Source: Candidatus Saccharimonadales bacterium
GTDB taxonomy: Bacteria; Patescibacteriota; Saccharimonadia; Saccharimonadales; JACDBH01
Assembly (NCBI GenBank): GCA_049292975.1
Contig: JBATRZ010000062.1
Coordinates: forward strand, 1 to 55,033
Direction: 5' to 3'
Length of the DNA stretch: 55,033 bases
The position numbers were made by a program, and so were the translations under genes. Every line of letters starts with the position of its first letter. The first letter of the stretch is position 1. The notes under the pieces were generated by a model, which was given only the letters and a program-made list of their open reading frames with translations, ran no database searches and was not told the DNA's origin. Below are positions 1,664 to 42,002 of the stretch, piece by piece.

Positions 1664-1917
1664 TGTGCTTATCCTACCACCACAGGCATGCACCAGGCCA
1701 GCAAACCGTGCAAAGCACGGACTTGCCTGGCATTCGTGGCGCGTGACTTTGTTACTAGCTTATCAGTACGTCCTCGCTGTACTTCAGTACGGCTCCGGGC
1801 GCCTGCAAGCTGGAATCGTAGCTCTTTTGCAGCGCAGCGAGCTCAGCTCGCTGGCAGGCAAAAGAGAGACTATGTTGCCGCGTCGCGCATCCACGTGCAA
1901 ACCTGTGGACGCAAACC

Positions 1918-2655: not shown

Positions 2656-3306
2656 ATGTTGGCTTGGAGTGAACAAGAAGCTGCACTGCTGGAGCTTTTT
2701 CATCAAGGTACCCACCTTAAATATAAAAAAGGTGAATTCATCATCCGGCCCGGCGAATCCCCGCCGGGTGTTTTTTATATAGAATCAGGTATCGTCAAGG
2801 CGTACGATATCACCAAATACGGCGAAGAGAACCTGCTTATTATCCGCAAAGAACAGGAAATATTCCCGCTTATCTGGGCTATCACCGGCCAGGAACGCCA
2901 CGTAATCTATGAAGCCCTGATCGCTACAGCCGTGTGGCGGATAGACCGCGGGCAGCTGCTGGAGCTAATGCAGGATAATCCCGCTGTGCTGGCGCCTTTG
3001 CTGGACATGACGGTAGAGATGTACCGCATACATAGCGAGCGCATCATAAATCTGGAATACCGCTCGGTACGGGAACGGCTGATATCGTTCCTGCTGACAA
3101 TGAGTACGCGCTTTGGCCAGAAAGAAAACGGCGGCATGCGCATTGACGTGCCGCTAAGACAGCAGGACATCGCCAGTTCCATAAACTCCACCCGCGAGAC
3201 AACTAGCCGCGAACTCACAGCACTAGAGAAAAAAGGCCTTATCAAGGCTGCTGATTCATTTATTACCATTACGGATGAGAAGGAGCTTAGGGATTATCTG
3301 CACTAG
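2656..3306 (+). CDS. Crp/Fnr-family transcriptional regulator
   Basis: A cNMP-binding-like N-terminal domain (FIIRPGESPPGVFYIESGIVK) is followed by a C-terminal HTH (QQDIASSINSTRETTSRELTALEKKGLI). Confidence 0.85.
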   Translation: MLAWSEQEAALLELFHQGTHLKYKKGEFIIRPGESPPGVFYIESGIVKAYDITKYGEENLLIIRKEQEIFPLIWAITGQERHVIYEALIATAVWRIDRGQLLELMQDNPAVLAPLLDMTVEMYRIHSERIINLEYRSVRERLISFLLTMSTRFGQKENGGMRIDVPLRQQDIASSINSTRETTSRELTALEKKGLIKAADSFITITDEKELRDYLH

Positions 3307-3311
3307 AATTC

Positions 3312-3386
3312 TGGAGAGGGGAGTATCCCCTCTCCACGTGCCGGGCACTGGCATAGCCAGATGCTCGGACTGCTCTCCCCTAGCCC
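3312..3386. repeat. Structured repeat, copy A (variable hairpin plus conserved hairpin plus ACTGCTCT tail)
   Basis: TGGAGAGGGGA-GTA-TCCCCTCTCCA, then CGTG-CCGGGCA-CTGGC-ATA-GCCAG-A-TGCTCGG-ACTGCTCTCCCCTAGCCC. Confidence 0.8.
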
Positions 3387-4297
3387 AGAAGCTTCAACAA
3401 GTAGAAGCGTTCGCGGTTGCCCTTGGCGCCCGCTACTTCGCTGTCGGCTTTGTCTATGATAATAAAGTACTGGTTTAGCCAGGTTTCGAAGTCTTTTAGG
3501 ATGGCACGGCGTATCTTGTCGTTCTTAATGACGCCCTTGTGCAGCGACCTACGCGCCTCACGGACTTGTCGAGCGGCAGAGCCACTCGCCCTGCCCGTGC
3601 TTTTGGCGCCGAGAGCCGTTTTTCCTCTGTGGTACTCGGGCAAAGTATCATCAATACTCCCCCCTCCGTTCCTCGAGGAAAAAACGGCTTCGGCATCCAA
3701 ACGCGAAGGTCGTTGAAGCTCAGCAATGATTTCGAACTGCGGCTTGCACATAGCGGCTATTTGCGTGTTAGGACCAGAGATTTTAGCCACATACGGCAGG
3801 ATTTCCCGCAATGATATGAAGCTTACATCCATCACAATTATGTCCGGCCGCTCACCCACCCCACCCTCTTTGTGAGAGGACAGTCCTCTCACATAATCGC
3901 GGATGTCGGTCTGCTCGTGCAATTCGATCTGCGGGTGGCCCACAAGTGTTGGGTGCAGCTGGTTGGTACCTACGTCTACTGCGATGACTTTTGCGGCACC
4001 GTTTTTTAGCGCAAAGTCGGTAAAACCGCCGGTGCTGCTGCCAACATCTAGCACTATTTTATCCTTGAATTGCAGCTTCAGCACGCGGGCGACACTGGCC
4101 AGCTTAAGCCCTGCCCGGCTGACATATTGGACTTTGGCAATAAGCCTGATGTCTGCGTCTTCAGAGACAATTGTACCTGGCTTGGTAAGGATGGTACCGT
4201 TTACGCGTACCTGACCGAGCTTGATAAAGCTTTCGGCCTGGCTACGCGTAGGCACCAACCCTGCCTCAGTCATGAGCTGGTCTAGGCGCTTCTTCAT
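3380..4297 (-). CDS. tlyA: TlyA-family rRNA 2'-O-methyltransferase carrying two in-frame insertions
   Basis: An S4 domain (RLDQLMTEAGLVPTRSQAESFIKLGQVRVNG), the SAM motif VLDVGSSTGGFTDF, DVSFISL and KPQFE are present. The protein is about 50 aa longer than typical TlyA. Confidence 0.85.
   Translation of the reverse strand: MKKRLDQLMTEAGLVPTRSQAESFIKLGQVRVNGTILTKPGTIVSEDADIRLIAKVQYVSRAGLKLASVARVLKLQFKDKIVLDVGSSTGGFTDFALKNGAAKVIAVDVGTNQLHPTLVGHPQIELHEQTDIRDYVRGLSSHKEGGVGERPDIIVMDVSFISLREILPYVAKISGPNTQIAAMCKPQFEIIAELQRPSRLDAEAVFSSRNGGGSIDDTLPEYHRGKTALGAKSTGRASGSAARQVREARRSLHKGVIKNDKIRRAILKDFETWLNQYFIIIDKADSEVAGAKGNRERFYLLKLLG
3546..3711. repeat. Roughly 166-bp nested imperfect palindrome, in frame in tlyA
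   Basis: Three arm pairs nest inside each other. 3608-3627 (GCCGAGAGCCGTTTTTCCTC) pairs with 3675-3694 (GAGGAAAAAACGGCTTCGGC). 3602-3606 pairs with 3697-3701. 3546-3555 (GACCTACGCG) pairs with 3702-3711 (CGCGAAGGTC). Confidence 0.7.
3872..3892. repeat. 21-nt perfect palindrome GTGAGAGGAC-A-GTCCTCTCAC, in frame in tlyA
   Basis: Read directly from the sequence. 10-nt arms with a single central base. Encodes VRGLSSH. Confidence 0.95.
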
Positions 4298-4300
4298 TGG

Positions 4301-4867
4301 CTAGTCCTTTTTACGTTCACGGTAGGCACCGGTGGCGGTATCTACGCTGATGACATCACCTTGCTTTATAAAAGCCGGTACCTTGACCGTAATGCCGGTC
4401 TCGAGCGTAGCATCTTTGAGCACAGAACTGGTCGTATCGCCTTTTACCACGCTCTCGGTGTAGGTTACTTCCAGATAGACATTCTTGGGCAACTCCACGT
4501 TAATGACATGGCCGTCGAATAGCTGGGCTATGACGTTATCGCCTTCTTTCAGATAGCCTGCTTGGCCGCCGATGATGTCACTGGCGATTTCGAACTGTTC
4601 GAACGTGTCATTGTTCATAAAGAAGTAGGTACTGCCGTCGTTATATAGATACTGTACGGTCTGATTACTCACGTCAGCCGGCTCGATGGACTCGTTGCCT
4701 TTAAAGGTCTTGGCTAATACCTTGCCGTCGCGCAGGCTCTTAATCTTTACGTTCACGATGGAGCCGCCGCGGCCCATTACCTTCTGGCCGTATTCCACAA
4801 CGCGGAACGGTTCACCATCCATCTGGAACAGGGTTCCCTTTTTTAAATCAGTAATACCAAATGCCAT
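4301..4867 (-). CDS. efp: Elongation factor P
   Basis: DLKKGTLFQMDGEPFRVVEYGQKVMGRGGSIVNVKIKSL... is the typical EF-P N-terminus, and the 188-aa length fits. Confidence 0.95.
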   Translation of the reverse strand: MAFGITDLKKGTLFQMDGEPFRVVEYGQKVMGRGGSIVNVKIKSLRDGKVLAKTFKGNESIEPADVSNQTVQYLYNDGSTYFFMNNDTFEQFEIASDIIGGQAGYLKEGDNVIAQLFDGHVINVELPKNVYLEVTYTESVVKGDTTSSVLKDATLETGITVKVPAFIKQGDVISVDTATGAYRERKKD

Positions 4868-5621: not shown

Positions 5622-5644
5622 TACAGATTACTGATTAGAGAATC
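5622..5644. repeat. Left inverted-repeat arm bracketing four-helix-bundle gene 1
   Basis: TACAGATTACTGATTAGAGAATC matches the reverse complement of 6016-6038 at 18 of 23 positions. It overlaps the stop codon. Confidence 0.6.
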
Positions 5645-6018
5645 TGCTTCACCCTCCTGTTCTGCTTATTAGCTTTTTGTAATCCTGCAAGTATTCTTTG
5701 TGCCTCATCAATTTGAAGCAATGTTTTTACACTTAGCTCTTCGCTTATGTAGCCAATGCCTTTTGCGATCAGGTACTGGCACTCGAGTTCTGTCAGAGAA
5801 CCTTTTGCTATCGCATAGAACTGATCTTTTTCCTTTGGACCAAATCTACCAAAACCTTCTGCAATATTTGAGCAAACAGACACCGCTGCTCTACGCATTT
5901 GACTTACCAAGCCGAATAACTCAGATTTTGGAAATTCTTTCGTTATCTCGTAAGTAAGTAGCGAAATTTCATAGGTCTTTTGCCATACGACCAAGTCTTT
6001 AAAGTTAGCTGCAGCCAT
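5635..6018 (-). CDS. Four helix bundle protein (23S rRNA intervening-sequence protein family)
   Basis: FKDLVVWQKTYEISLLTYEITKEFPKSELFGLVSQMRRAAVSVCSNIAEGFGR...AKGSLTELECQ is the hallmark of the PF05635/TIGR02436 family. GC content is lower than in the flanks. Confidence 0.85.
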   Translation of the reverse strand: MAAANFKDLVVWQKTYEISLLTYEITKEFPKSELFGLVSQMRRAAVSVCSNIAEGFGRFGPKEKDQFYAIAKGSLTELECQYLIAKGIGYISEELSVKTLLQIDEAQRILAGLQKANKQNRRVKQIL

Positions 6019-6349: not shown

Positions 6350-6410
6350 TCTCCTTTCTAAAGTTTGCTTATTAATGTAAATGGGTTTTAGGCAATTTTG
6401 GCTAGTGCAG

Positions 6411-6489
6411 CTGGGAGTCAAGGCCGAGCACAAAGTTTGAGCCGTATTGAACATACGGTGAAAACTTTTGACGCAGGCCTTGGCCCCAG
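6411..6489. other. 79-nt extended hairpin in the ssb-rpsR spacer
   Basis: CTGGGAGTCAAGGCC..CAAAGTTT..CCGTAT-TGAAC-ATACGG..AAACTTTTG..GGCCTTGGCCCCAG, with symmetric internal loops. Confidence 0.6.
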
Positions 6490-6508
6490 ATGTGCAGCCT
6501 AAAATTGA

Positions 6509-6976
6509 CTAAAACGGGATGTCGTCGAGGTTGATGGGTTCATCGCCGATGTCTTCTATGACCACGTCGTCGGCTTGCTTCTTGCTTGGGCTTGGGCGGC
6601 TGCTGCCGCCATCGCTGGAGCCGCCGCCTTCATTACCGTCGCGGCCGCCCAGGAATGTTACGTCAGTAGCGTTTACCTCGAGCTTGCTGCGCTTTTGGCC
6701 GGTAGTCTTGTCTTCCCAGCTGCTGGATTGCAGGCGGCCGTTTACCAGACACGGGCGGCCTTTGCTCAGGTACTGGGCTACCCGTTCGCCCAGCGGGCCC
6801 CAGGCAACCACGTCTACGTAATCGGTCACCTCTTGCCAGTTACCATCGGCGCCCTTGTAGCTGCGGTTCAGCGCAAGGCTGAAACTGCAAACGGATTGGC
6901 CGCTGGGTATTGTCCTAAGTTCTGGGTCGCGGGTTAGGTTACCCATTAAAATTACTTGGTTAAAACTACGTGCCAT
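6509..6976 (-). CDS. ssb: Single-stranded DNA-binding protein
   Basis: OB-fold N-terminus MARSFNQVILMGNLTRDPELR, a Gly/Ser-rich linker and an acidic tip ending DDIPF. An AAGGAGG Shine-Dalgarno sequence lies upstream. Confidence 0.95.
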   Translation of the reverse strand: MARSFNQVILMGNLTRDPELRTIPSGQSVCSFSLALNRSYKGADGNWQEVTDYVDVVAWGPLGERVAQYLSKGRPCLVNGRLQSSSWEDKTTGQKRSKLEVNATDVTFLGGRDGNEGGGSSDGGSSRPSPSKKQADDVVIEDIGDEPINLDDIPF

Positions 6977-7761: not shown

Positions 7762-8583
7762 TCAAGCTGCCCCAAGCAGCTGGCGGCGCAGCGGGCTGAA
7801 GTATTCGGGCCAGCGCTCTTCCGGGAAAACCAGGGTAACTACATCCGCGGCGCAGGGCTTGGCCTTCTTGACTAAGCCTTCTTCAAGCGCCTGGCCGTAC
7901 ACCGGATCTACGGGCTCCACTGCCATCTCTATGGCTTCGCGCAGGATTTTCATACCTAAGCGGCGGCGGCGCTCGGTATTGCCCGATGACAGGAACGCCT
8001 TTATATCCCTCTGGCTTAAGCTTGTTAGGTCTTGCTTCTGAGCATAGGCAGCAAAGAATTTGCCGATATGCCGCGCAGCATAATCTTCGTTACGGTAGCC
8101 GATGGCACGGTTTTGCTTGGTCTCGTAGTGCATCTGCTTGCGGCCGCGTACAAAATCATAGGTCTTGCCCGACATAGCCACCAGCCCTGGATTGCCTGGG
8201 TCGCGTACGTCTAAGGCCTGGCGCGGCATATATCCGGCCACGGCCAGGACGGTAATGGCAAATTTGTCCTGTTCGGTCCGCGGCAAAATATCGGTGCCGC
8301 CAGGATAAGCCTCGTGAAAATTATTGTGCAGCCAGCGGGCAACCGTCAGGCAGCGGCTATAGCGTACGGCCCGGCCCGCATCACCCTGCAGTTCCCGGGC
8401 CTTTTTTTGATAAAACGAATGATGATCATCACTCCAGGTTCTCCGCTCGCCCCTAGGGGCTTCGTACGGGTGGATAGGATACGGCATGCCGTATTCATCG
8501 GTTGGGGCTAGGGCTAGTTCAGGCGGCTCGGGCAGGCGGAGAGGTGCTGGCGTGCCGGTTGGCGCGACAAGCAGCTCGGGCAT
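7762..8583 (-). CDS. Hypothetical protein (about 273 aa)
   Basis: Long ORF. The track start at 8601 is TTG, so the first ATG at 8583 is used here. No confident motif. Confidence 0.5.
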   Translation of the reverse strand: MPELLVAPTGTPAPLRLPEPPELALAPTDEYGMPYPIHPYEAPRGERRTWSDDHHSFYQKKARELQGDAGRAVRYSRCLTVARWLHNNFHEAYPGGTDILPRTEQDKFAITVLAVAGYMPRQALDVRDPGNPGLVAMSGKTYDFVRGRKQMHYETKQNRAIGYRNEDYAARHIGKFFAAYAQKQDLTSLSQRDIKAFLSSGNTERRRRLGMKILREAIEMAVEPVDPVYGQALEEGLVKKAKPCAADVVTLVFPEERWPEYFSPLRRQLLGAA

Positions 8584-8603
8584 GTTAGTCCCGTAGCCCA
8601 ATC

Positions 8604-8778
8604 ATTGTAAAATTCAGCATTGGATAGATTTCCCTAGTAAAAAGCTGCTCTTTTGCGCTGCAAACTCCTACAGCCTTCGCAACGTAGCTATGGCTACGCT
8701 TTGTCGGCTCTAGAAGTTTTCGCTGCAAAATCTTCTGCTTTTTATAGGCAGAAACTACCCAGTGCTGAATTTTATAGT
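8604..8778. repeat. Non-coding segment of about 175 bp closed by a 20-bp inverted repeat
   Basis: 8604-8623 (ATTGTAAAATTCAGCATTGG) pairs with 8759-8778 (CCAGTGCTGAATTTTATAGT). It forms 20 bp including 3 G:T pairs that work only on the plus strand. The interior contains duplicated GCTGCAAA words and two small hairpins. Confidence 0.6.
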
Positions 8779-8847
8779 TTTTGATTTTGCACCCTGCCAT
8801 AATTAACCTAAGAATATCCCGCAAAAACGGTTATGGCAAGCGAATTT

Positions 8848-20889: not shown

Positions 20890-21093
20890 CTTAGATTCAA
20901 GTATAGCGTAGTCCTTGGGGACGACAGTAAAGCTCGCATTTGGATGCAGGGTGGATTTTCTTGCTGCGAAGCGCAAAGGAGCCGTATTTAAATACGGTGA
21001 CTGACATGGTCTCTTTTTCCTAGCAAGCAAGCTAAGCTTGTTGCTTGAAAAAGCCACGATCTCGCATCGTAAAGCAAAAATCTGCGCTGCGCC

Positions 21094-21139
21094 AAAAGCT
21101 TCAGCAGGTTGTCAGCTCCGCTGACGAGCAGGCTGAAGC
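21094..21139 (-). terminator. Rho-independent terminator after the DHH-like gene
   Basis: On the minus strand, GCTTCAGC...GTCAGC-GGA-GCTGAC...GCTGAAGC is followed by TTTTGG, 10 nt after the stop codon. Confidence 0.6.
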
Positions 21140-21149
21140 GATGCGTGCT

Positions 21150-23114
21150 TTACTGTTGGGGGAACATCGGCGGAGGGATAGGCGGTGGTGGCGGCAACGT
21201 ATTATCATGCTGCTGCGCAGGTGCCGGAGCCGATGGATCAACACCGTTCAAGACAGGTTGCGGCGGCATGGACGGCATGCCAAGCGGCTGGGCGCCCAAA
21301 TCTACCCGCGGCTGCGGGCGGTCCGGATTATAATCTGCCCTACTAATTGCCTCATCTACGGCGTTGCGCGCGGTGTCTACCCCTGCTGCAGGTGCAGGCT
21401 CGCCGTCCATGCCCAAGTGCGGACTGTGGACCGTCTTCTCGATATCCAGCAGGGTCGTTTCGTCAGGGATATCTGGCACTTCGGGCCCGGCTGGAGCTTC
21501 GGGAGCCGGCGGTTGTGCCGGTTGCGGTGCAGCCTCAGGATTGGAAGCCGGCTGTGCACCCGGCGGCATAGGCTGATCGTACGGCGGACCGGCATTTGGC
21601 AAGGTAGGCAGGTCCAGTTCGGGAACCTCCCCGGTTGATTCAGGGAACGGCTGGCCGGGATCGGTCGCCTTGACATCGCTGATCTCAGCGTGAATTTCTG
21701 GACGGGTGAGCAAGCTGCTCAGATTGGCCAGCTCGGCATCCAGGCTAGCGTCGTCCGGCCCCGGTGCGGCCTGCAGCGGGCTAACAACCTTGTGATGCGG
21801 CTGCAGCGGCTTTTCCCTGCGGACCATATTGCCATGCTCGTCAATATGTATAGAACTATCCTTGTCCTCGTGAACGGGCGCGTGCTCTATCGGCGCGAAT
21901 ATGTCTACCGGATTATCAGGCGCTATCAAACCATCCGGCGGCTGGGAGCCAGGCAATAACGGATCATACGATTCTTCCCCTTCAGAAGGCAGCAGCGGAG
22001 AAACAAATGCTTCTTCGTTGCCCTCAATATTATCCATGACCTCAAGCGACGGGTCTTGATGCTGAGGCTCGCTTGGCGGCAGGTACTGGCGCTCCTGCTG
22101 CGGTTTTTCATCCGGCACTTCTGGTAATTCGGCTGTCGGCTGGGCGGCGGCTTCCTGGGGCTGCTGCCGCTCTGTCTGTAACCTCACTTCTTCCTGCTGG
22201 TTGTCATCGTGGTTGATGGTCAGCGAACCATCGTCACTTACGGCGGCGGCCGGCAAAGGCTGCGGCTCGTCATGCGGTACTTCTACCGGCTGATCGGCCT
22301 GCAGCACCTCATCTTTTTGCAGCTCGTTGGCAATCAATTGCTGGTTGGCACCGGCGGCCATCAGCTGCGCGGCCATGGTCATAATCTTCGGGCTGGTCTT
22401 GGCGTTCTTGAAGCGCTCGGTCTCGGCTACGATACCGGTCAAGAAGGCGGTGGCTATCTGTTCATCAATCAGGCCGCCCTGGAATGCCTCAGAGATACTT
22501 ACCAGCATTTCGCTCAAAGAACTGGCAGCGGGCTCCTGCCAATTAAGCGCACCCAGCTCGGACTGGTTCTGCCCGGCCGTGATAGTCACTACGGTAGCAT
22601 CGTGCAGGATACGGCCATGGGCGGTAATAGCCTGGTCCAGCTCATCGCGGACGGTGACACCCAGGGCCATGACTACATCTACGTTAAAATCGCCTTGGGT
22701 AAACTCAAGATCTTGCTCTGATATAGAGGTGCGGTACGGGGTGATAAAGATCTTCACCACGTTTTCTTCCACCTTGTAGCGCAGCTTGTCGGCCTTGCTC
22801 TTATCTAAAGAGACAATGAAGTCGCGTAAAGAATCGGTATTCTGCTCGATGGTGTCCTCGGGCTTTAGGAACTCAAGCGTAGAGGGCACCTTGCCGCTGA
22901 AGACGGCGGTGGCATGCTTGCCCAACTTGTTTAGCATCAGTGTCAGGCCGATGGCGGCCGCCAGCTCGTCTACCGAAGGGTTGGAGCGGACCGTCACCAG
23001 CACATTGGTCGCCTGCTGCACACGGGCAACTACCGACTGCTTCGGTGTCGATTGCCGCTGGTCCTGATCCAGGGATTGATCTTTAAACTGATCTTGTGGC
23101 TGGCTTGGATCCAT
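21150..23114 (-). CDS. DHH/NrnA-like protein with degenerate catalytic motifs and a roughly 380-aa Pro/Gln/Glu-rich tail
   Basis: The N-terminal 270 aa align by eye to the NrnA layout (LVTVRSNPSVDELAAAIGL..., ...TGIVAETERFKN), but the DHH position reads VVMALGV. The rest is low-complexity and proline-rich. Confidence 0.5.
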   Translation of the reverse strand: MDPSQPQDQFKDQSLDQDQRQSTPKQSVVARVQQATNVLVTVRSNPSVDELAAAIGLTLMLNKLGKHATAVFSGKVPSTLEFLKPEDTIEQNTDSLRDFIVSLDKSKADKLRYKVEENVVKIFITPYRTSISEQDLEFTQGDFNVDVVMALGVTVRDELDQAITAHGRILHDATVVTITAGQNQSELGALNWQEPAASSLSEMLVSISEAFQGGLIDEQIATAFLTGIVAETERFKNAKTSPKIMTMAAQLMAAGANQQLIANELQKDEVLQADQPVEVPHDEPQPLPAAAVSDDGSLTINHDDNQQEEVRLQTERQQPQEAAAQPTAELPEVPDEKPQQERQYLPPSEPQHQDPSLEVMDNIEGNEEAFVSPLLPSEGEESYDPLLPGSQPPDGLIAPDNPVDIFAPIEHAPVHEDKDSSIHIDEHGNMVRREKPLQPHHKVVSPLQAAPGPDDASLDAELANLSSLLTRPEIHAEISDVKATDPGQPFPESTGEVPELDLPTLPNAGPPYDQPMPPGAQPASNPEAAPQPAQPPAPEAPAGPEVPDIPDETTLLDIEKTVHSPHLGMDGEPAPAAGVDTARNAVDEAISRADYNPDRPQPRVDLGAQPLGMPSMPPQPVLNGVDPSAPAPAQQHDNTLPPPPPIPPPMFPQQ

Positions 23115-23302
23115 CCCGTTTAGAAACCACTTTCCATTAAATATTGTTTTTCGCCTGAAATTAGAAGCTGGGGTTCAACCGTCTTTAGATATCTGTTACT
23201 TCTTTGGTTTCTAACGGCATTCATTTTTGTTTGTTTATTTTAGTAGTACTTAAGTAGCACATTACCATAAACAATTTGAAAAGTCCAAGGACTTTTTGTT
23301 AA

Positions 23303-23369
23303 GGGTGAAGGGAGTTGGGGTACAGGTTAAAGCAATAATACCAACCCTGCATCCCCTGCCCTGCACCCC
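23303..23369. repeat. Intergenic G-word / C-word imperfect palindrome
   Basis: GGGTGAA GGGAGTT GGGGTAC AGG ... CCCTGCA TCCCCTG CCCTGCA CCCC. Confidence 0.7.
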
Positions 23370-23375
23370 GGCTTA

Positions 23376-36270: not shown

Positions 36271-39038
36271 ATCTCGCCCCAGTTTTTACCGCTATCAACA
36301 TCAACCTTCAGCTTAACTCCAAGCTCCGGATAGACATGTTCCATCGTTTCTTTCATCAGCTCGCCAACTTTTTCGGCATCGTCGGCATGGCATTCCACCA
36401 GGATACTGTCATGAATCTGCAACAACATGCGGGGCACGCCCGCAGGAGTGAGGAGTGAGGAGTGGGGAGTGGGTTTTTCAGACCCTTTCTTCTTACTTCT
36501 TTCTGCTTTCTCCGCAAAAGTTTGATCAAACTTTTGCTGCAACCGTACCATTGCTAATTTTGTGAGATCGGCCGCGCTGCCCTGGATAGGCATATTGATG
36601 GCCTGGCGGTAGGCGCCTTCGCGCACCATGAAATTGCTGGACTTTACGTCGGGCGTGGGGCGGCGGCGACCCAGTATCGTCTCGACATAGCCCTTCTTTA
36701 GGGCCTGTTCGCGCAAAGACTCGATGTATAGCTTTAATTTGGGACGGATCATAAAGTACTTGGCGATGAAATCGCGCGCCTCGGCAAAACTCATGCCCGT
36801 ACCCTCGGCCAGCCCGTGCGGCCCCTGGCCGTACATGATGCCAAAGTTCACGGCTTTGGCGTTATAGCGCATTTGTTTGGTGACTTCCTCGGGATCTATG
36901 TTCAGCACCGCGGCAGCAGTCAGCACATGGACGTCCTGGTCTTCGTTGAAGGCACGGATCATGTCTTCATCGCCGCTCAGCGCGGCAGCCAGACGGATTT
37001 CAAACTGTGAGTAGTCAGCGCTCACGAACACGTGGCCGGGCCGGGCCACAAAGCCGGTACGGATTTTTTTGCCAAGTTCAGTCCGAACGGGGATGTTCTG
37101 CAAATTTGGCTCGTTGCTGCTCAGGCGCCCGGTGGGGGCAATGGTCATCCGGAAGTTGGTGTGCACGCGGCCGTTTTCGTCCATCTGCTTTGGCAGCGTA
37201 TCGACATAGGTGCTCTTGAGCTTGGTGTACTCGCGGTATTGTTCGATACAGTCGATGATAGGGTGCAGCGCCCGTAGTTTGTTCAACACATCCGAGGCGG
37301 TGGAAAAATGCCCGGCTTTGCCCTTCTTTACGTTCCACGGCTGGCCTTCGTAGCCGTGCGTCAATTTGGCCTGCGTGCTTGAAGTTGGCAGCTGTAATTT
37401 CTCAAATAATATTTCGGACAATTGCCCCGGGCTGGAGATATTGAACTCTTGGTCGGCATGGCCGTAGATGGTCTGCTCGATGTCGCTGATTTTATCGGCC
37501 AGCTCATCGCCCATTTTGGCCAAGTAGCCGGCGTCCAGGCCAATGCCCTCGTATTCCATGCGCGCCAGAACCGGAATCACCGGCCACTCGACTTGGTCGC
37601 TGAGAGTAATCAGCTTGGTCAGCTCGCTCATACTCTCGGCCTGGTAATTCTGCAGGGCCTTAATGACAGCGACTAGCTCGCCTGCCCGTTTATGCAGCTC
37701 TTCTGAATTCAGCGCGTCAAGGCTGGCGGTTTCGTGGCCAAGGTCAGCAAAAGCCAGTTCGGTCAAAGTAGTAACGCGGCGGATGGAATTGATAAGGAAC
37801 GCGCCCACTAGTACATCATGACTAACTTTTGGTAATTCCACGCCAAGGTCCAGCAGCACCTTCAGACTGGCCTTAAGGTCGTAGCCTATGACATTCTTCA
37901 GCTCACCAAGCTTGGCAGCCACGGCTTTTTTATCCAGGGCCTTCAGGTCGAGTACATAGGCTGTCTTATCATCTGCTAGCACGATGGTTTCGGCACCGCG
38001 GCCATGTTGCCCGGACGCGTAGCTGTGCAGCACCATCTCGTCCTGTATCTTGATAGCCTTTAACGCGCCGTTCATGATGACCAGCTCTGTCTTCAGCGGT
38101 TCGATAGCGCCTGCCGTCACTTTATGCACGGGCGCTTCACTGTTATCCAGGACCTGCATGTACTCGGGCAGTTGGCGCAGCAGGCTGCGGAATTCCAGGT
38201 TGGTCAGCAGGCTCTTAAGCGCATGCACGTCCAGGTCGCGCGTGTCCGTCGCCTGAAGATCCAGGTCTACCGGCGCGTCATCCATTAGTAGCGCGACTTG
38301 CTTGCTTAAGTAGGCCGACTCTTTGCCCGCCTCAAGCTTTTTGCGGGTAGTTTCTTTGATTAACGCCAGGTTGTCATAGATGTTATCGAGCGTCTTGTAA
38401 TCCTGCAGCAGTTGCACGGCGGTCTTCTCGCCCACACCCGGCACACCTGGGATGTTATCGGAGCTGTCACCTTTGAGCGACTTCAAATCCAGGAATTGTT
38501 CTACCTCTATACCGTGTTTTTGTTCAAAATATTCAATGTCAAACCGTTCGATGTTGCTAAAGCCCTTTTTGAGCACATAGACGTGTGAATGCTGGCCGAT
38601 GCACTGCAGAGCGTCCAGATCACTGGTGATTAGCATAGTCTCCAGGCCGGCTTTATCCGCCTTCTTAGCCAGGGTACACATGATGTCATCGGCCTCGTAA
38701 TCATCCAGCTCATACAGGGGCCAGCTGAAGGCTTTGAGCAGGTCGTGCAGGATAGGAATCTGCACGTAGAAATCCGGCGGCGCAGGCTTGCGGCCGGCCT
38801 TGTACTGCGGGTACAGCTCTAGCCGTTTGCGGATGTTGGTCTTGGGCTTGTCCCAGGCCACAGCCACATAATCGGGCTTGAGCCTCTTCAGCAGCTCCAG
38901 TGACATGGCGGCAAAGCCGTAGACGCCGCCCGTAGGCGTACCGTCCTTGGTGCTGAGGTTGGGCATGGCATAATAGCCGCGGTAAAACACGCTCTTGCCA
39001 TCTATGATTGCCAGTTTCTTCCGAGCAGTATCAGCCAT
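36267..39038 (-). CDS. polA: DNA polymerase I
   Basis: 5'-nuclease domain (LAIIDGKSVFYRGYYA), then polymerase motifs DYSQFEIRLAA, RYNAKAVNFGIMYG and QIHDSILVE. ATG at 39038. Confidence 0.95.
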   Translation of the reverse strand: MADTARKKLAIIDGKSVFYRGYYAMPNLSTKDGTPTGGVYGFAAMSLELLKRLKPDYVAVAWDKPKTNIRKRLELYPQYKAGRKPAPPDFYVQIPILHDLLKAFSWPLYELDDYEADDIMCTLAKKADKAGLETMLITSDLDALQCIGQHSHVYVLKKGFSNIERFDIEYFEQKHGIEVEQFLDLKSLKGDSSDNIPGVPGVGEKTAVQLLQDYKTLDNIYDNLALIKETTRKKLEAGKESAYLSKQVALLMDDAPVDLDLQATDTRDLDVHALKSLLTNLEFRSLLRQLPEYMQVLDNSEAPVHKVTAGAIEPLKTELVIMNGALKAIKIQDEMVLHSYASGQHGRGAETIVLADDKTAYVLDLKALDKKAVAAKLGELKNVIGYDLKASLKVLLDLGVELPKVSHDVLVGAFLINSIRRVTTLTELAFADLGHETASLDALNSEELHKRAGELVAVIKALQNYQAESMSELTKLITLSDQVEWPVIPVLARMEYEGIGLDAGYLAKMGDELADKISDIEQTIYGHADQEFNISSPGQLSEILFEKLQLPTSSTQAKLTHGYEGQPWNVKKGKAGHFSTASDVLNKLRALHPIIDCIEQYREYTKLKSTYVDTLPKQMDENGRVHTNFRMTIAPTGRLSSNEPNLQNIPVRTELGKKIRTGFVARPGHVFVSADYSQFEIRLAAALSGDEDMIRAFNEDQDVHVLTAAAVLNIDPEEVTKQMRYNAKAVNFGIMYGQGPHGLAEGTGMSFAEARDFIAKYFMIRPKLKLYIESLREQALKKGYVETILGRRRPTPDVKSSNFMVREGAYRQAINMPIQGSAADLTKLAMVRLQQKFDQTFAEKAERSKKKGSEKPTPHSSLLTPAGVPRMLLQIHDSILVECHADDAEKVGELMKETMEHVYPELGVKLKVDVDSGKNWGEI
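36445..36513. repeat. Heptamer-word imperfect palindrome, in frame in polA
   Basis: GGAGTGA GGAGTGA GGAGTGG GGAGTGG GT-TTTTCAG-ACCCTTTC TTCTTAC TTCTTTC TGCTTTC TCC. 69 nt, equal to 23 codons. Confidence 0.85.
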
Positions 39039-39240
39039 CACGACCTGCTTTCAGGCAGAGCCTGAAACCCTGCCATGATTTTTTGCCCATGACTGCGTTG
39101 GTATCTGCGGTACTCGCGCACAGTATTTTGATACAGCTTGCTCCGTTCCTCGCTACCGCCTTGTCCTGGCCAAATCTGATACTGCTCAAGTCACTCATAC
39201 ATACAGTGTAACAAGAGACGGATGCTGTTGATACTTGTGC

Positions 39241-39783
39241 TTAGGCGGCGTCGGCCAGGTCCAGGAGTTTTTCTAACGGCGTAGCTTTTGCAAGCGTATT
39301 CTGGGCCAGCAAGTAGTAACCATCGTCAAAGGCGCCCTTTATCGGATCGGCTATGCCTGTCTCGTCCAGATCGGTTACGATCGCATGGTCTCTTGTGTAT
39401 CTGAAGGCTACTTTATGCGACCTCTGAAGTCCGTACGCGGGATGGATATATTCCAAGCCACACAGCGAAGCCACGGCAACCTGAGCCAGAACCGGCACGC
39501 GCTCTACCGTCCATTCCTCGTCATCCATCTCCGTATAATGAAGCGGGCTATGCTCGCCAAAGGGCGGCGGGAACATAAATGCAATATGGGCAGCCCTGCG
39601 CAAATCAAATACATCCAGCTGCGTGACGTTTGTATCGCTCTCTTCCCAGGTTGTCAGCGCCACCGTCAATTCGCCCGCAACGGCTGGCGTACTGGCAATT
39701 TTTTCACTGAGTCCATGCAGAAGCGCTGCATCCTGAATAATAAGCAGTGCATCCAAGGTTGGATTTAACTCTATACCTGGCAT
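39241..39783 (-). CDS. Hypothetical protein (180 aa)
   Basis: ATG-started ORF. No motif recognised. Confidence 0.45.
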   Translation of the reverse strand: MPGIELNPTLDALLIIQDAALLHGLSEKIASTPAVAGELTVALTTWEESDTNVTQLDVFDLRRAAHIAFMFPPPFGEHSPLHYTEMDDEEWTVERVPVLAQVAVASLCGLEYIHPAYGLQRSHKVAFRYTRDHAIVTDLDETGIADPIKGAFDDGYYLLAQNTLAKATPLEKLLDLADAA

Positions 39784-40014
39784 TTGCTACATTTTATATC
39801 CCTGTTAGGGGCGAATTGCAAGCCCCGCTAGAAATAAGCCGCTCTAAGCGGCTGCCCAGAAGGCTTTTTAGCCGGAGCGGATTTCTAACGGGGCAAACAT
39901 ATGCATAATGTTCATGCAGCGCATGCTTGTACGGCTCAAACGGCGGCGCCTCTCAGTAGCCGCGTGTTCCATGGGCGCTTAGCTTAACGTATCTGTTTCC
40001 GCTAATCTAAAGCG

Positions 40015-41536: not shown

Positions 41537-42002
41537 TGTCTCCTTAAATAACCGGTCCCTGGCGCCAATCGGCCTGTATCTGGGCCGCCCAAGATGCATT
41601 TGCGCTCAACGCACTCGGACTTGCTGCAGGGTCTTGTGTGGTTTAGCAATGGAAGCTGCTCCACAATGATTTCTTCTGCGAAAGTTATGTGCGGAGATGA
41701 TAGCCGGTTGTTTTGTCGACAAGACGTATCAAAATACGTCTTGGAGCAAAACGGTCGGCTAGCGCTCCGCACATAGCTTGCAGCTGAAAAGCATTGTGGG
41801 GTTAGCTTCCTTAGTTGCTCGCGCTCAAAAGCGCGCCTCCCTCCCCATACAATTCCTATCGCCCGCTAGTCTGGCGCCAAAGACCTGGAATATTAAATAA
41901 CGCACTTACCATTTAGACATAGGCCGGCGATTGATAAAGTAAGATTTCTCATAGAGTGCTTATGGTAGGGTCATAGTGTAACGGGTAAGAAATTGTCTAT
42001 GT

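Follow-up and report, generated by a model that had tools for sequence, protein, structure and literature searches.

The question raised by the 55,033-nt contig JBATRZ010000062.1 of Candidatus Saccharimonadales bacterium (assembly GCA_049292975.1; the whole stretch is hereafter called the window) is what kind of DNA lies in its tlyA gene, where a long palindromic segment is read through in frame. The tlyA open reading frame (ORF; 3380..4297, minus strand, 305 aa) was recognized from the ORF list, from its Pfam domains (S4 and an FtsJ-type 2′-O-methyltransferase) and from 8000 TlyA homologues. A sequence-only reading had placed an extra segment between the motifs KPQFE and HKGVIKND, which the ORF translation reproduces exactly (IIAELQ...RRSL), and had likened the underlying DNA to the Rickettsia palindromic elements (RPEs). 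According to our analysis, the tlyA segment is probably one copy of a dispersed, uncatalogued family of structured repeats of about 170 nt, RPE-like in behavior and present in several copies both in this Saccharibacteria genome and in related ones.

In the majority of the 120 best TlyA homologues, the loop at this site has six residues (AGxxxK) and the protein is about 238 aa long; the earlier reading had given the canonical loop about 8-10 residues. Locus L001 encodes the same TlyA without the extra segment (P0002). Alignment of the two DNAs delimits a 189-nt cassette at 3542..3730 (minus strand; 63 codons, IIAELQ...RRSL), which swaps with the 18-nt loop GCGGGTGCAAACACCAAA (AGANTK) of the empty allele, taking six codons to 63 with a net gain of about 57 aa. 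The proposed insertion of about 50 aa is thus real as an extra segment but is not a clean insertion, since 18 nt are replaced. The cassette is made up of the structured element proper plus 21 nt of diverged loop. Alignments to PDB TlyA chains reach residue ~190 and end at the insertion. In an orthologue comparison that had been named beforehand as a check, the insertion was missing from nearly all orthologues as well as from the near-identical strain represented by L001.

Upstream of the site, L001 and the window differ by one base in 10,566 nt (99.99% identity), and downstream they are 98.98% identical over 3.5 kb. (Of the 36 downstream differences, 27 cluster at 114-801, a second locally divergent tract in these near-identical strains.) Three synonymous differences at 3524, 3527 and 3530 (3524..3530, minus strand) travel with the cassette, as shown by the haplotypes of the window, L001, L025 and L026-L031, and form the downstream edge of the exchanged tract. 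Locus L025 possesses the cassette and all three synonymous changes, yet carries L001-type variants from 3445 onward, indicating that the linked tract covers only 3731..3524. The filled allele was recovered on at least 24 contigs that come from independent samples, and one of these stems from the study that also yielded the empty allele, which rules out an assembly artefact; both alleles occur in samples ERZ27258524 and ERZ27258528. The same replacement of 18 nt by 189 nt was found in an independent pair, the filled L002 and the empty L150, which are 87% identical.

Folding of positions 3546-3711 as tlyA-sense RNA gave -93 kcal/mol compared with -58.6 ± 3.9 kcal/mol for shuffled sequences (z -8.9; none of 200 as good), so that in this comparison, also fixed in advance, the element folds far better than its controls. 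The opposite RNA strand reached -76.8 kcal/mol (z -5.8), and the plus strand folded as DNA reached z -5.7. The tlyA-sense RNA takes the shape of a three-way junction of stems P1, P2 and P3 (all minus strand). The closing stem P1 joins a 5′ arm at 3701..3711 to a 3′ arm at 3546..3556; both arms are present in the minimum free energy (MFE) structure and as an inverted repeat, and 9 of the 12 P1 pairs covary in the family described below. P2 (3603..3700) is a long hairpin comprising a basal stem, a U-rich/A-rich stem, a conserved internal loop and an apical hairpin in the MFE structure, with covariation at 14 of the 20 pairs of helix 2, and P3 (3559..3599) is a shorter MFE hairpin whose helices 6-8 covary in the family. 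The same fold was predicted independently for the copies in L002 and L006. The inner arms that had been proposed are present (3601-3627 / 3675-3701), and the outer arms extend to 3542-3555 / 3702-3715 with 86% complementarity. What had been described as a nested palindrome therefore keeps its inverted repeats and loses its simple nested shape, as P3 (3559-3599) had been overlooked. Within P2 lies a conserved core, GAGGAACGGA-N27-GAGUACCACAG (3627..3674, minus strand), which is invariant in 15 of 15 aligned copies and which we read as putatively resembling loop E/sarcin-ricin or tandem G.A motifs.

To find relatives, the 63-aa peptide was compared by phmmer with 1.84 billion proteins, giving three matches (P0124, P0125 and P0126). 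Of these, P0124 and P0126 belong among repeat proteins, and their matches are probably spurious. P0125, a spurious-looking ORF of 83 aa, led to the first intergenic copy (L032), which is flanked by genes for a patatin and a Pup ligase. The core pattern GGAACGGA-N17-40-GAGTACCNCAGNNGAAAA then retrieved 12 loci from the GTDB genome set, mainly in Saccharibacteria with one each in Parcubacteria and Limnocylindria, one genome holding two copies. A covariance model, R1, was built from an alignment of 13 copies, and the tlyA element matches it over its full length (3543..3714, minus strand, 165 bits). Of the 60 pairs in the R1 consensus, 39 show compensatory changes. The share of paired cells is 91%, compared with 73% for shuffled controls and 37-46% for controls with a slid partner column, and the covariation score is 0.54 versus 0.20; none of 500 shuffles reached the observed values. 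The alignment contains 88 G-U cells versus 16 A-C cells, an excess which identifies the tlyA-sense strand as the folded one.

R1 detected further copies in the window itself. A second full-length copy with an intact core (GAGGAACGGA...GAGUACCGCAG) is intergenic, upstream of polA (39022..39188, minus strand; 85.8 bits, E ~1e-19). A third, intergenic between truB and a 654-aa ORF (20926..21154, plus strand; 78.6 bits), is a variant form whose core is degenerate and which contains an internal insertion, and its R1 match breaks in two with the filters off. A partial or divergent intergenic copy in which P1 and P3 are recognizable (1741..1880, plus strand; 30.1 bits, E ~1e-5) is also found in L001 and L025. 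The 55-kb window thus holds three to four copies, and two each are present in L006, in L003 (the second at 8124-8249, minus strand, 42 bits) and in genome CAZWFS01; most family copies are intergenic. Two copies of one Saccharibacteria genome (L038 1196-1389 and L039 4302-4499) have in common an internal addition of about 50 nt resembling a duplicated P2 3′ arm.

Other searches were less sensitive or returned nothing. A blastn search, which had been suggested as the way to other copies, yielded within the window only a 50-nt match of 76% identity at 39104-39152; plain blastn missed the window copies because they are too diverged, and the resulting impression of a single copy was wrong, the covariance model having recovered them in the window and in related loci. 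Rfam 15 gave no relevant match to window positions 3300-4400 at E <= 10, nothing on 10 other element copies and, for the entire window at gathering score, no family, not even a tRNA. A homologous-protein search with the 63-aa peptide alignment and a 92-aa segment returned no scored match, and as the window's own protein was missed as well, such short queries are uninformative in this kind of search. The stringent 3′-arm pattern GAAAAACNGNTNTCNGCGCCAAAA retrieved only tlyA copies and chance matches from genomes and JGI metagenomes, the peptide pattern had no match over metagenomes, and the core pattern had none in viral contigs.

Two further copies lie in frame within unrelated ORFs, in agreement with the earlier suggestion of an RPE-like element that remains open in frame. 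One (L006 132-300, plus strand, 110 bits) is situated within a family-4 uracil-DNA glycosylase (UDG) ORF, where PDB 4zbx aligns to either side of a stretch of about 50 extra residues. The other (L033 3006-3174) is situated within an ORF for an ArgZ-like enzyme (arginine-dihydrolase-like, of the guanidino-group-modifying enzyme, GME, type), and PDB 6jv0 is collinear with this ORF before and after the element. TlyA, UDG and the ArgZ-like protein are unrelated and come from three genomes; they read three different frames of the element, all in the sense orientation. Stop codons are absent from only 8 of the 45 sense frames of the intergenic copies. In the tlyA copies the host frame is open in all four insertion-bearing lineages, each of which encodes 63 residues, and the sole length difference among these four copies (in L006) does not shift the frame.

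Because the frame is conserved, we infer that the cassette is translated. AlphaFold, run on a 77-sequence alignment, predicted the TlyA fold confidently (mean predicted local distance difference test score, pLDDT, 80; predicted template modelling score, pTM, 0.77), with pLDDT of 35-67 for residues ~190-250 and below 50 for residues 206-239. The open frames together with this low local confidence suggest that the cassette forms a tolerated, largely disordered surface loop of TlyA. The loop appears permissive, as P0109 carries a different insertion there, an unrelated Gly/Ser/Gln-rich stretch of 27 aa (L007 3725-3830) with no significant fold (z -0.8). The frame kept open in four lineages, a cassette ratio of nonsynonymous to synonymous substitution (dN/dS) of 0.28-0.54 and short helices predicted by AlphaFold at the cassette edges could alternatively reflect an ordinary lineage-specific loop expansion with a role at the protein level, the palindrome being incidental. 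We regard such an expansion as very improbable, and the family evidence largely refutes it: the same nucleic-acid element occurs between genes and in other genes in other frames, its structure covaries, its distribution on the TlyA tree is polyphyletic, synonymous sites of the cassette are far more conserved than those of the remaining tlyA, and the insertion itself has the pLDDT of 35-67 given above.

Since P1 joins both ends of the element and the site lies between two highly conserved motifs, like the sites of homing elements, the segment might instead be an intervening sequence that is eliminated once transcribed or translated (an intron, an intervening sequence excised by RNase III, a mini-intein or a translational bypass), leaving a canonical mature TlyA. 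This is the most improbable of the explanations considered. No Rfam intron or ribozyme matched at E <= 10, the element with its 172 nt is far below the size of group I or II introns, and the junctions E|I ... L|H lack the Cys/Ser/Thr and His-Asn signatures of inteins. Excision, moreover, would make an open frame unnecessary, and still four diverged lineages and two other host genes have preserved it. An intein proper was rejected in view of the length (63 aa, whereas inteins have at least ~130 aa) and of the junctions E|IIAE ... RRSL|HKG, which are without the required residues. A retron non-coding RNA was likewise rejected, since the vicinity contains no reverse transcriptase and the hairpins follow each other in the wrong order on the sense strand.

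In a tree built from the non-insertion columns of TlyA, the four insertion-bearing lineages (the window, P0003, P0004 and P0023) fall into four separate clades, and the nearest relatives of each are empty. Among the window, L002 and L003, the cassette DNA is 81-88% identical with a synonymous divergence (dS) of 0.27-0.5, whereas the remaining tlyA is 65-72% identical with dS saturated. The scattered presence and absence and the lower divergence of the element than of its host argue for lateral spread of the cassette, and the comparison supports the view that it moved between tlyA alleles later than the hosts diverged, that its nucleotides are under selection, or both. The likely vehicle would be homologous recombination between alleles, with the near-invariant codons for KPQFE and HKGVIKND serving as arms; recombination through these arms would make the whole 189-nt unit, including its 21 nt of non-element loop, always travel together. 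Across the four tlyA copies, 25 of the 60 pairs vary, 12 of them in a fully compensatory manner.

Several points weigh against taking the tlyA segment as an RPE-like mobile repeat. The copy count covers the 55-kb window and fragments only. Neither a transposase nor a target-site duplication was identified, nor any terminal inverted repeats other than P1, the partner insertion sequence (IS) not having been searched genome-wide; the P1 arms themselves pair yet vary in sequence and covary across the family. At both filled/empty tlyA pairs a target-site duplication is absent and 18 nt are replaced instead, and because the filled site is a replacement bearing no marks of transposition, the case for transposition into tlyA is not made. 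In its behavior the tlyA copy resembles an allele cassette that recombination exchanges, not a fresh transposition, and even the recombination breakpoint could in part reflect a strain-chimeric metagenome assembly, although L025 argues otherwise. That the segment is transcribed, translated and retained in the protein is something we infer. The 12 compensatory pairs among the tlyA copies and the invariant core further suggest ongoing selection on the fold, which a dead selfish insertion would not need, and together with the compensatory evolution and the G-U strand bias, the conserved core would also be compatible with a functional RNA.

The core hairpin of about 50 nt (GAGGAACGGA...GAGUACCNCAG) recurs across several phyla. 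The relaxed pattern GAGGAACGGA-N20-34-GAGTACCNCAG matched more than 116 genome loci, those listed including many Saccharibacteria, Melainabacteria, Vampirovibrio and one Rickettsiella; versions of about 124 nt are present in Parcubacteria and Uhrbacteria. The helices flanking the core on both sides pair better than with swapped partners. The matches at L101, L067 and L108 lie inside ORFs and were set aside as chance.

In many Saccharimonadales, the core is part of a conserved, apparently single-copy RNA-like region of about 150 nt that follows a tRNA gene at a distance of about 80 nt downstream, contains GGTTCGGCGGAC-GAGGAACGGA-hairpin-GAGTACCGCAG-GAAGGAGTGCGC and has a closing stem (L049 3760-3900; L078 5130-5260; L055 6990-7120, minus strand; L072 180-320; L083 6690-6820; L047 5560-5680). 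No Rfam family matches this tRNA-adjacent region. In the 16S-23S spacer of Anaerobacillus, the core hairpin, set in a long stem, occurs twice, once after the 16S gene and once before the 23S gene (L091 416-456 and 908-948, minus strand; also L051 1527-1567, minus strand). Several Acidimicrobiia metagenome-assembled genomes contain many copies of a GC-rich repeat having the same core and different flanks, ...GGGGCCCCGCCC GAGGAACGGA GACCCGG...CGGGC GAGTACCGCAG CGGATGGGG...GGTGACAGGACCCC..., some of them as tandem or inverted pairs (L044, L048, L050, L054, L058, L061-L064, L066, L068, L070, L073, L074, L087, L092, L094, L095, L102, L105, L107, L110, L112 and L113).

Conservation of the fold on the sense strand would be needed either for the element's own propagation or for an RNA role at the level of the host. 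In the latter case the elements would be functional structured RNA modules, such as sites where a conserved host factor binds or processes the RNA, or small-RNA genes, and the tlyA copy would act in the mRNA, for example through stability, translation pausing or protein recruitment. The invariant core of about 50 nt with its covarying flanking helices, the strand-specific G-U bias and the compensatory changes arising in situ among the tlyA copies point to function, as does the presence of the core in the conserved, apparently single-copy tRNA-adjacent RNA of many Saccharimonadales, twice in the Anaerobacillus rRNA spacer and in several other phyla. Pointing to a passenger are the inconsistent contexts and orientations relative to neighboring genes, the existence of degenerate and partial copies and the near-identical strain that manages without the tlyA copy; the presence in three unrelated ORFs is also hard to account for by an RNA function. 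On this balance we think it unlikely that the elements are functional RNA modules and not selfish DNA. A broader proposal, which we hold tentatively as a possibility, is that the GAGGAACGGA-hairpin-GAGUACCNCAG core is an uncatalogued cross-phylum RNA module, bound by a conserved cellular factor and mobilisable, which would cover the tRNA-adjacent small RNA, the rRNA spacers, the multi-copy repeats of Acidimicrobiia, Melainabacteria and Patescibacteria and the ORF-internal copies, the tlyA copy being either functional or actively propagating.

Returning to the dispersed repeat family, its closest parallel among known systems is found in RPEs, palindromic elements scattered both between genes and, in frame, inside unrelated genes for proteins, whose chains gain an extra peptide at sites that the fold can accommodate (PMC10969869). 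The family is like RPE-1 to RPE-10 in being palindromic, about 100-170 bp long, multi-copy and both intergenic and in frame in unrelated genes, as seen here in three host ORFs, several intergenic copies and a TlyA loop predicted with low confidence. The likeness described here is one of size, structure and genomic placement, and the phylum is different (Rickettsia versus Saccharibacteria/Patescibacteria). The family differs further by its three-way junction and its invariant internal-loop core common to several phyla, by in-frame copies that use three frames, so that no single element peptide exists, and by a tlyA copy that spreads as an allele cassette. It is best supported as an analogue of the Rickettsia RPEs in another phylum, with an architecture of its own, and not as a member.

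Bacterial MITEs (transposable elements of the miniature inverted-repeat kind) and intergenic palindromic repeats are also small and structured, can be co-transcribed and occasionally form in-frame fusions (PMC10969869). The present family is similar to MITEs, ERIC, Correia/NEMIS, BOX and REP/BIME sequences in being small, non-coding, structured and multi-copy. Unlike in these, no clear IS-matching terminal inverted repeats, target-site duplication or partner transposase were seen here, and the family is too diverged for blastn while its structure is conserved with a strong strand-specific G-U bias. Homing elements such as inteins and group I introns likewise fill one site between invariant motifs in phylogenetically scattered lineages, are less diverged than their hosts and co-convert flanking markers. 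In contrast to these, the tlyA element has no endonuclease and no splicing signatures, its segment would stay in the product, and its spread is best explained by ordinary homologous recombination. Intervening sequences and expansion hairpins of rRNA are comparable as extended hairpins in conserved transcripts, and core copies do occur in the Anaerobacillus rRNA spacer; the host here is however an mRNA and the element would be translated.

To our knowledge, the remodelling of proteins by palindromic repeats inserted in frame has been described essentially for Rickettsia, and our literature searches turned up no account of such elements in Saccharibacteria. The present family suggests that protein evolution via in-frame repeats is not confined to Rickettsia, as it appears here in another lineage with reduced genomes (Saccharibacteria, of the candidate phyla radiation, CPR). 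The filled and empty tlyA alleles of near-identical strains provide a test case for whether carrying such an element is neutral, costly or of use. Added to this is an RNA family that Rfam lacks, seen here in more than 100 loci, and some unexplained length variation of CPR proteins, which annotators could otherwise mistake for assembly or gene-calling problems, would find an explanation.

Some smaller features of the window and of the tlyA neighborhood are recorded here. The strongest-folding 150-nt stretch of the window is intergenic, at 41626-41825 (plus strand; regression z -6.8), and includes a long hairpin at 41681-41780 with a weak R1 match (24.5 bits) via its GUUUU...GUAUCAAAAUAC...AAAAC part; the hairpin may be a P3-less relative of the element family. 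Folding well beyond the expectation from GC content was also observed at 6351-6550 (plus), 36401-36575 (plus), 8601-8800 (minus), 39751-39925 (minus) and 23226-23375 (minus), and a marginal R1 match of 14 bits at 6388-6512. Within tlyA, an inverted repeat with perfect 10-bp arms and a spacer of 1 nt (GTGAGAGGAC a GTCCTCTCAC; 3872-3892) lies in a second variable loop, YVRGLSSHKEGGVGERPD, which exceeds that of the 238-aa orthologues by about 10 aa and is far longer in P0004, P0045, P0064, P0068, P0076 and P0101; the repeat may be another small hairpin-type in-frame insertion.

A gene of the 2′,5′ RNA ligase family (2H phosphoesterase) is located upstream of tlyA in L002 (7739-8206), L006 (9550-10056) and L007 (2554-3018), all of which bear an insertion in the TlyA loop. 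It directly precedes and overlaps tlyA in L002 and L006, and in L007 a small ORF of 59 aa separates the two; this association is probably synteny and not linkage. The upstream neighbors of tlyA in the window and in L003 are the genes for elongation factor P (EF-P) and a NUDIX protein. Finally, the window encodes at 5635-6018 (minus strand) a 127-aa protein of the "23S rRNA intervening-sequence protein"/Avd-like four-helix-bundle family (PF05635), whose gene is not located within an rRNA but between the gene clusters of S18 and EF-P.

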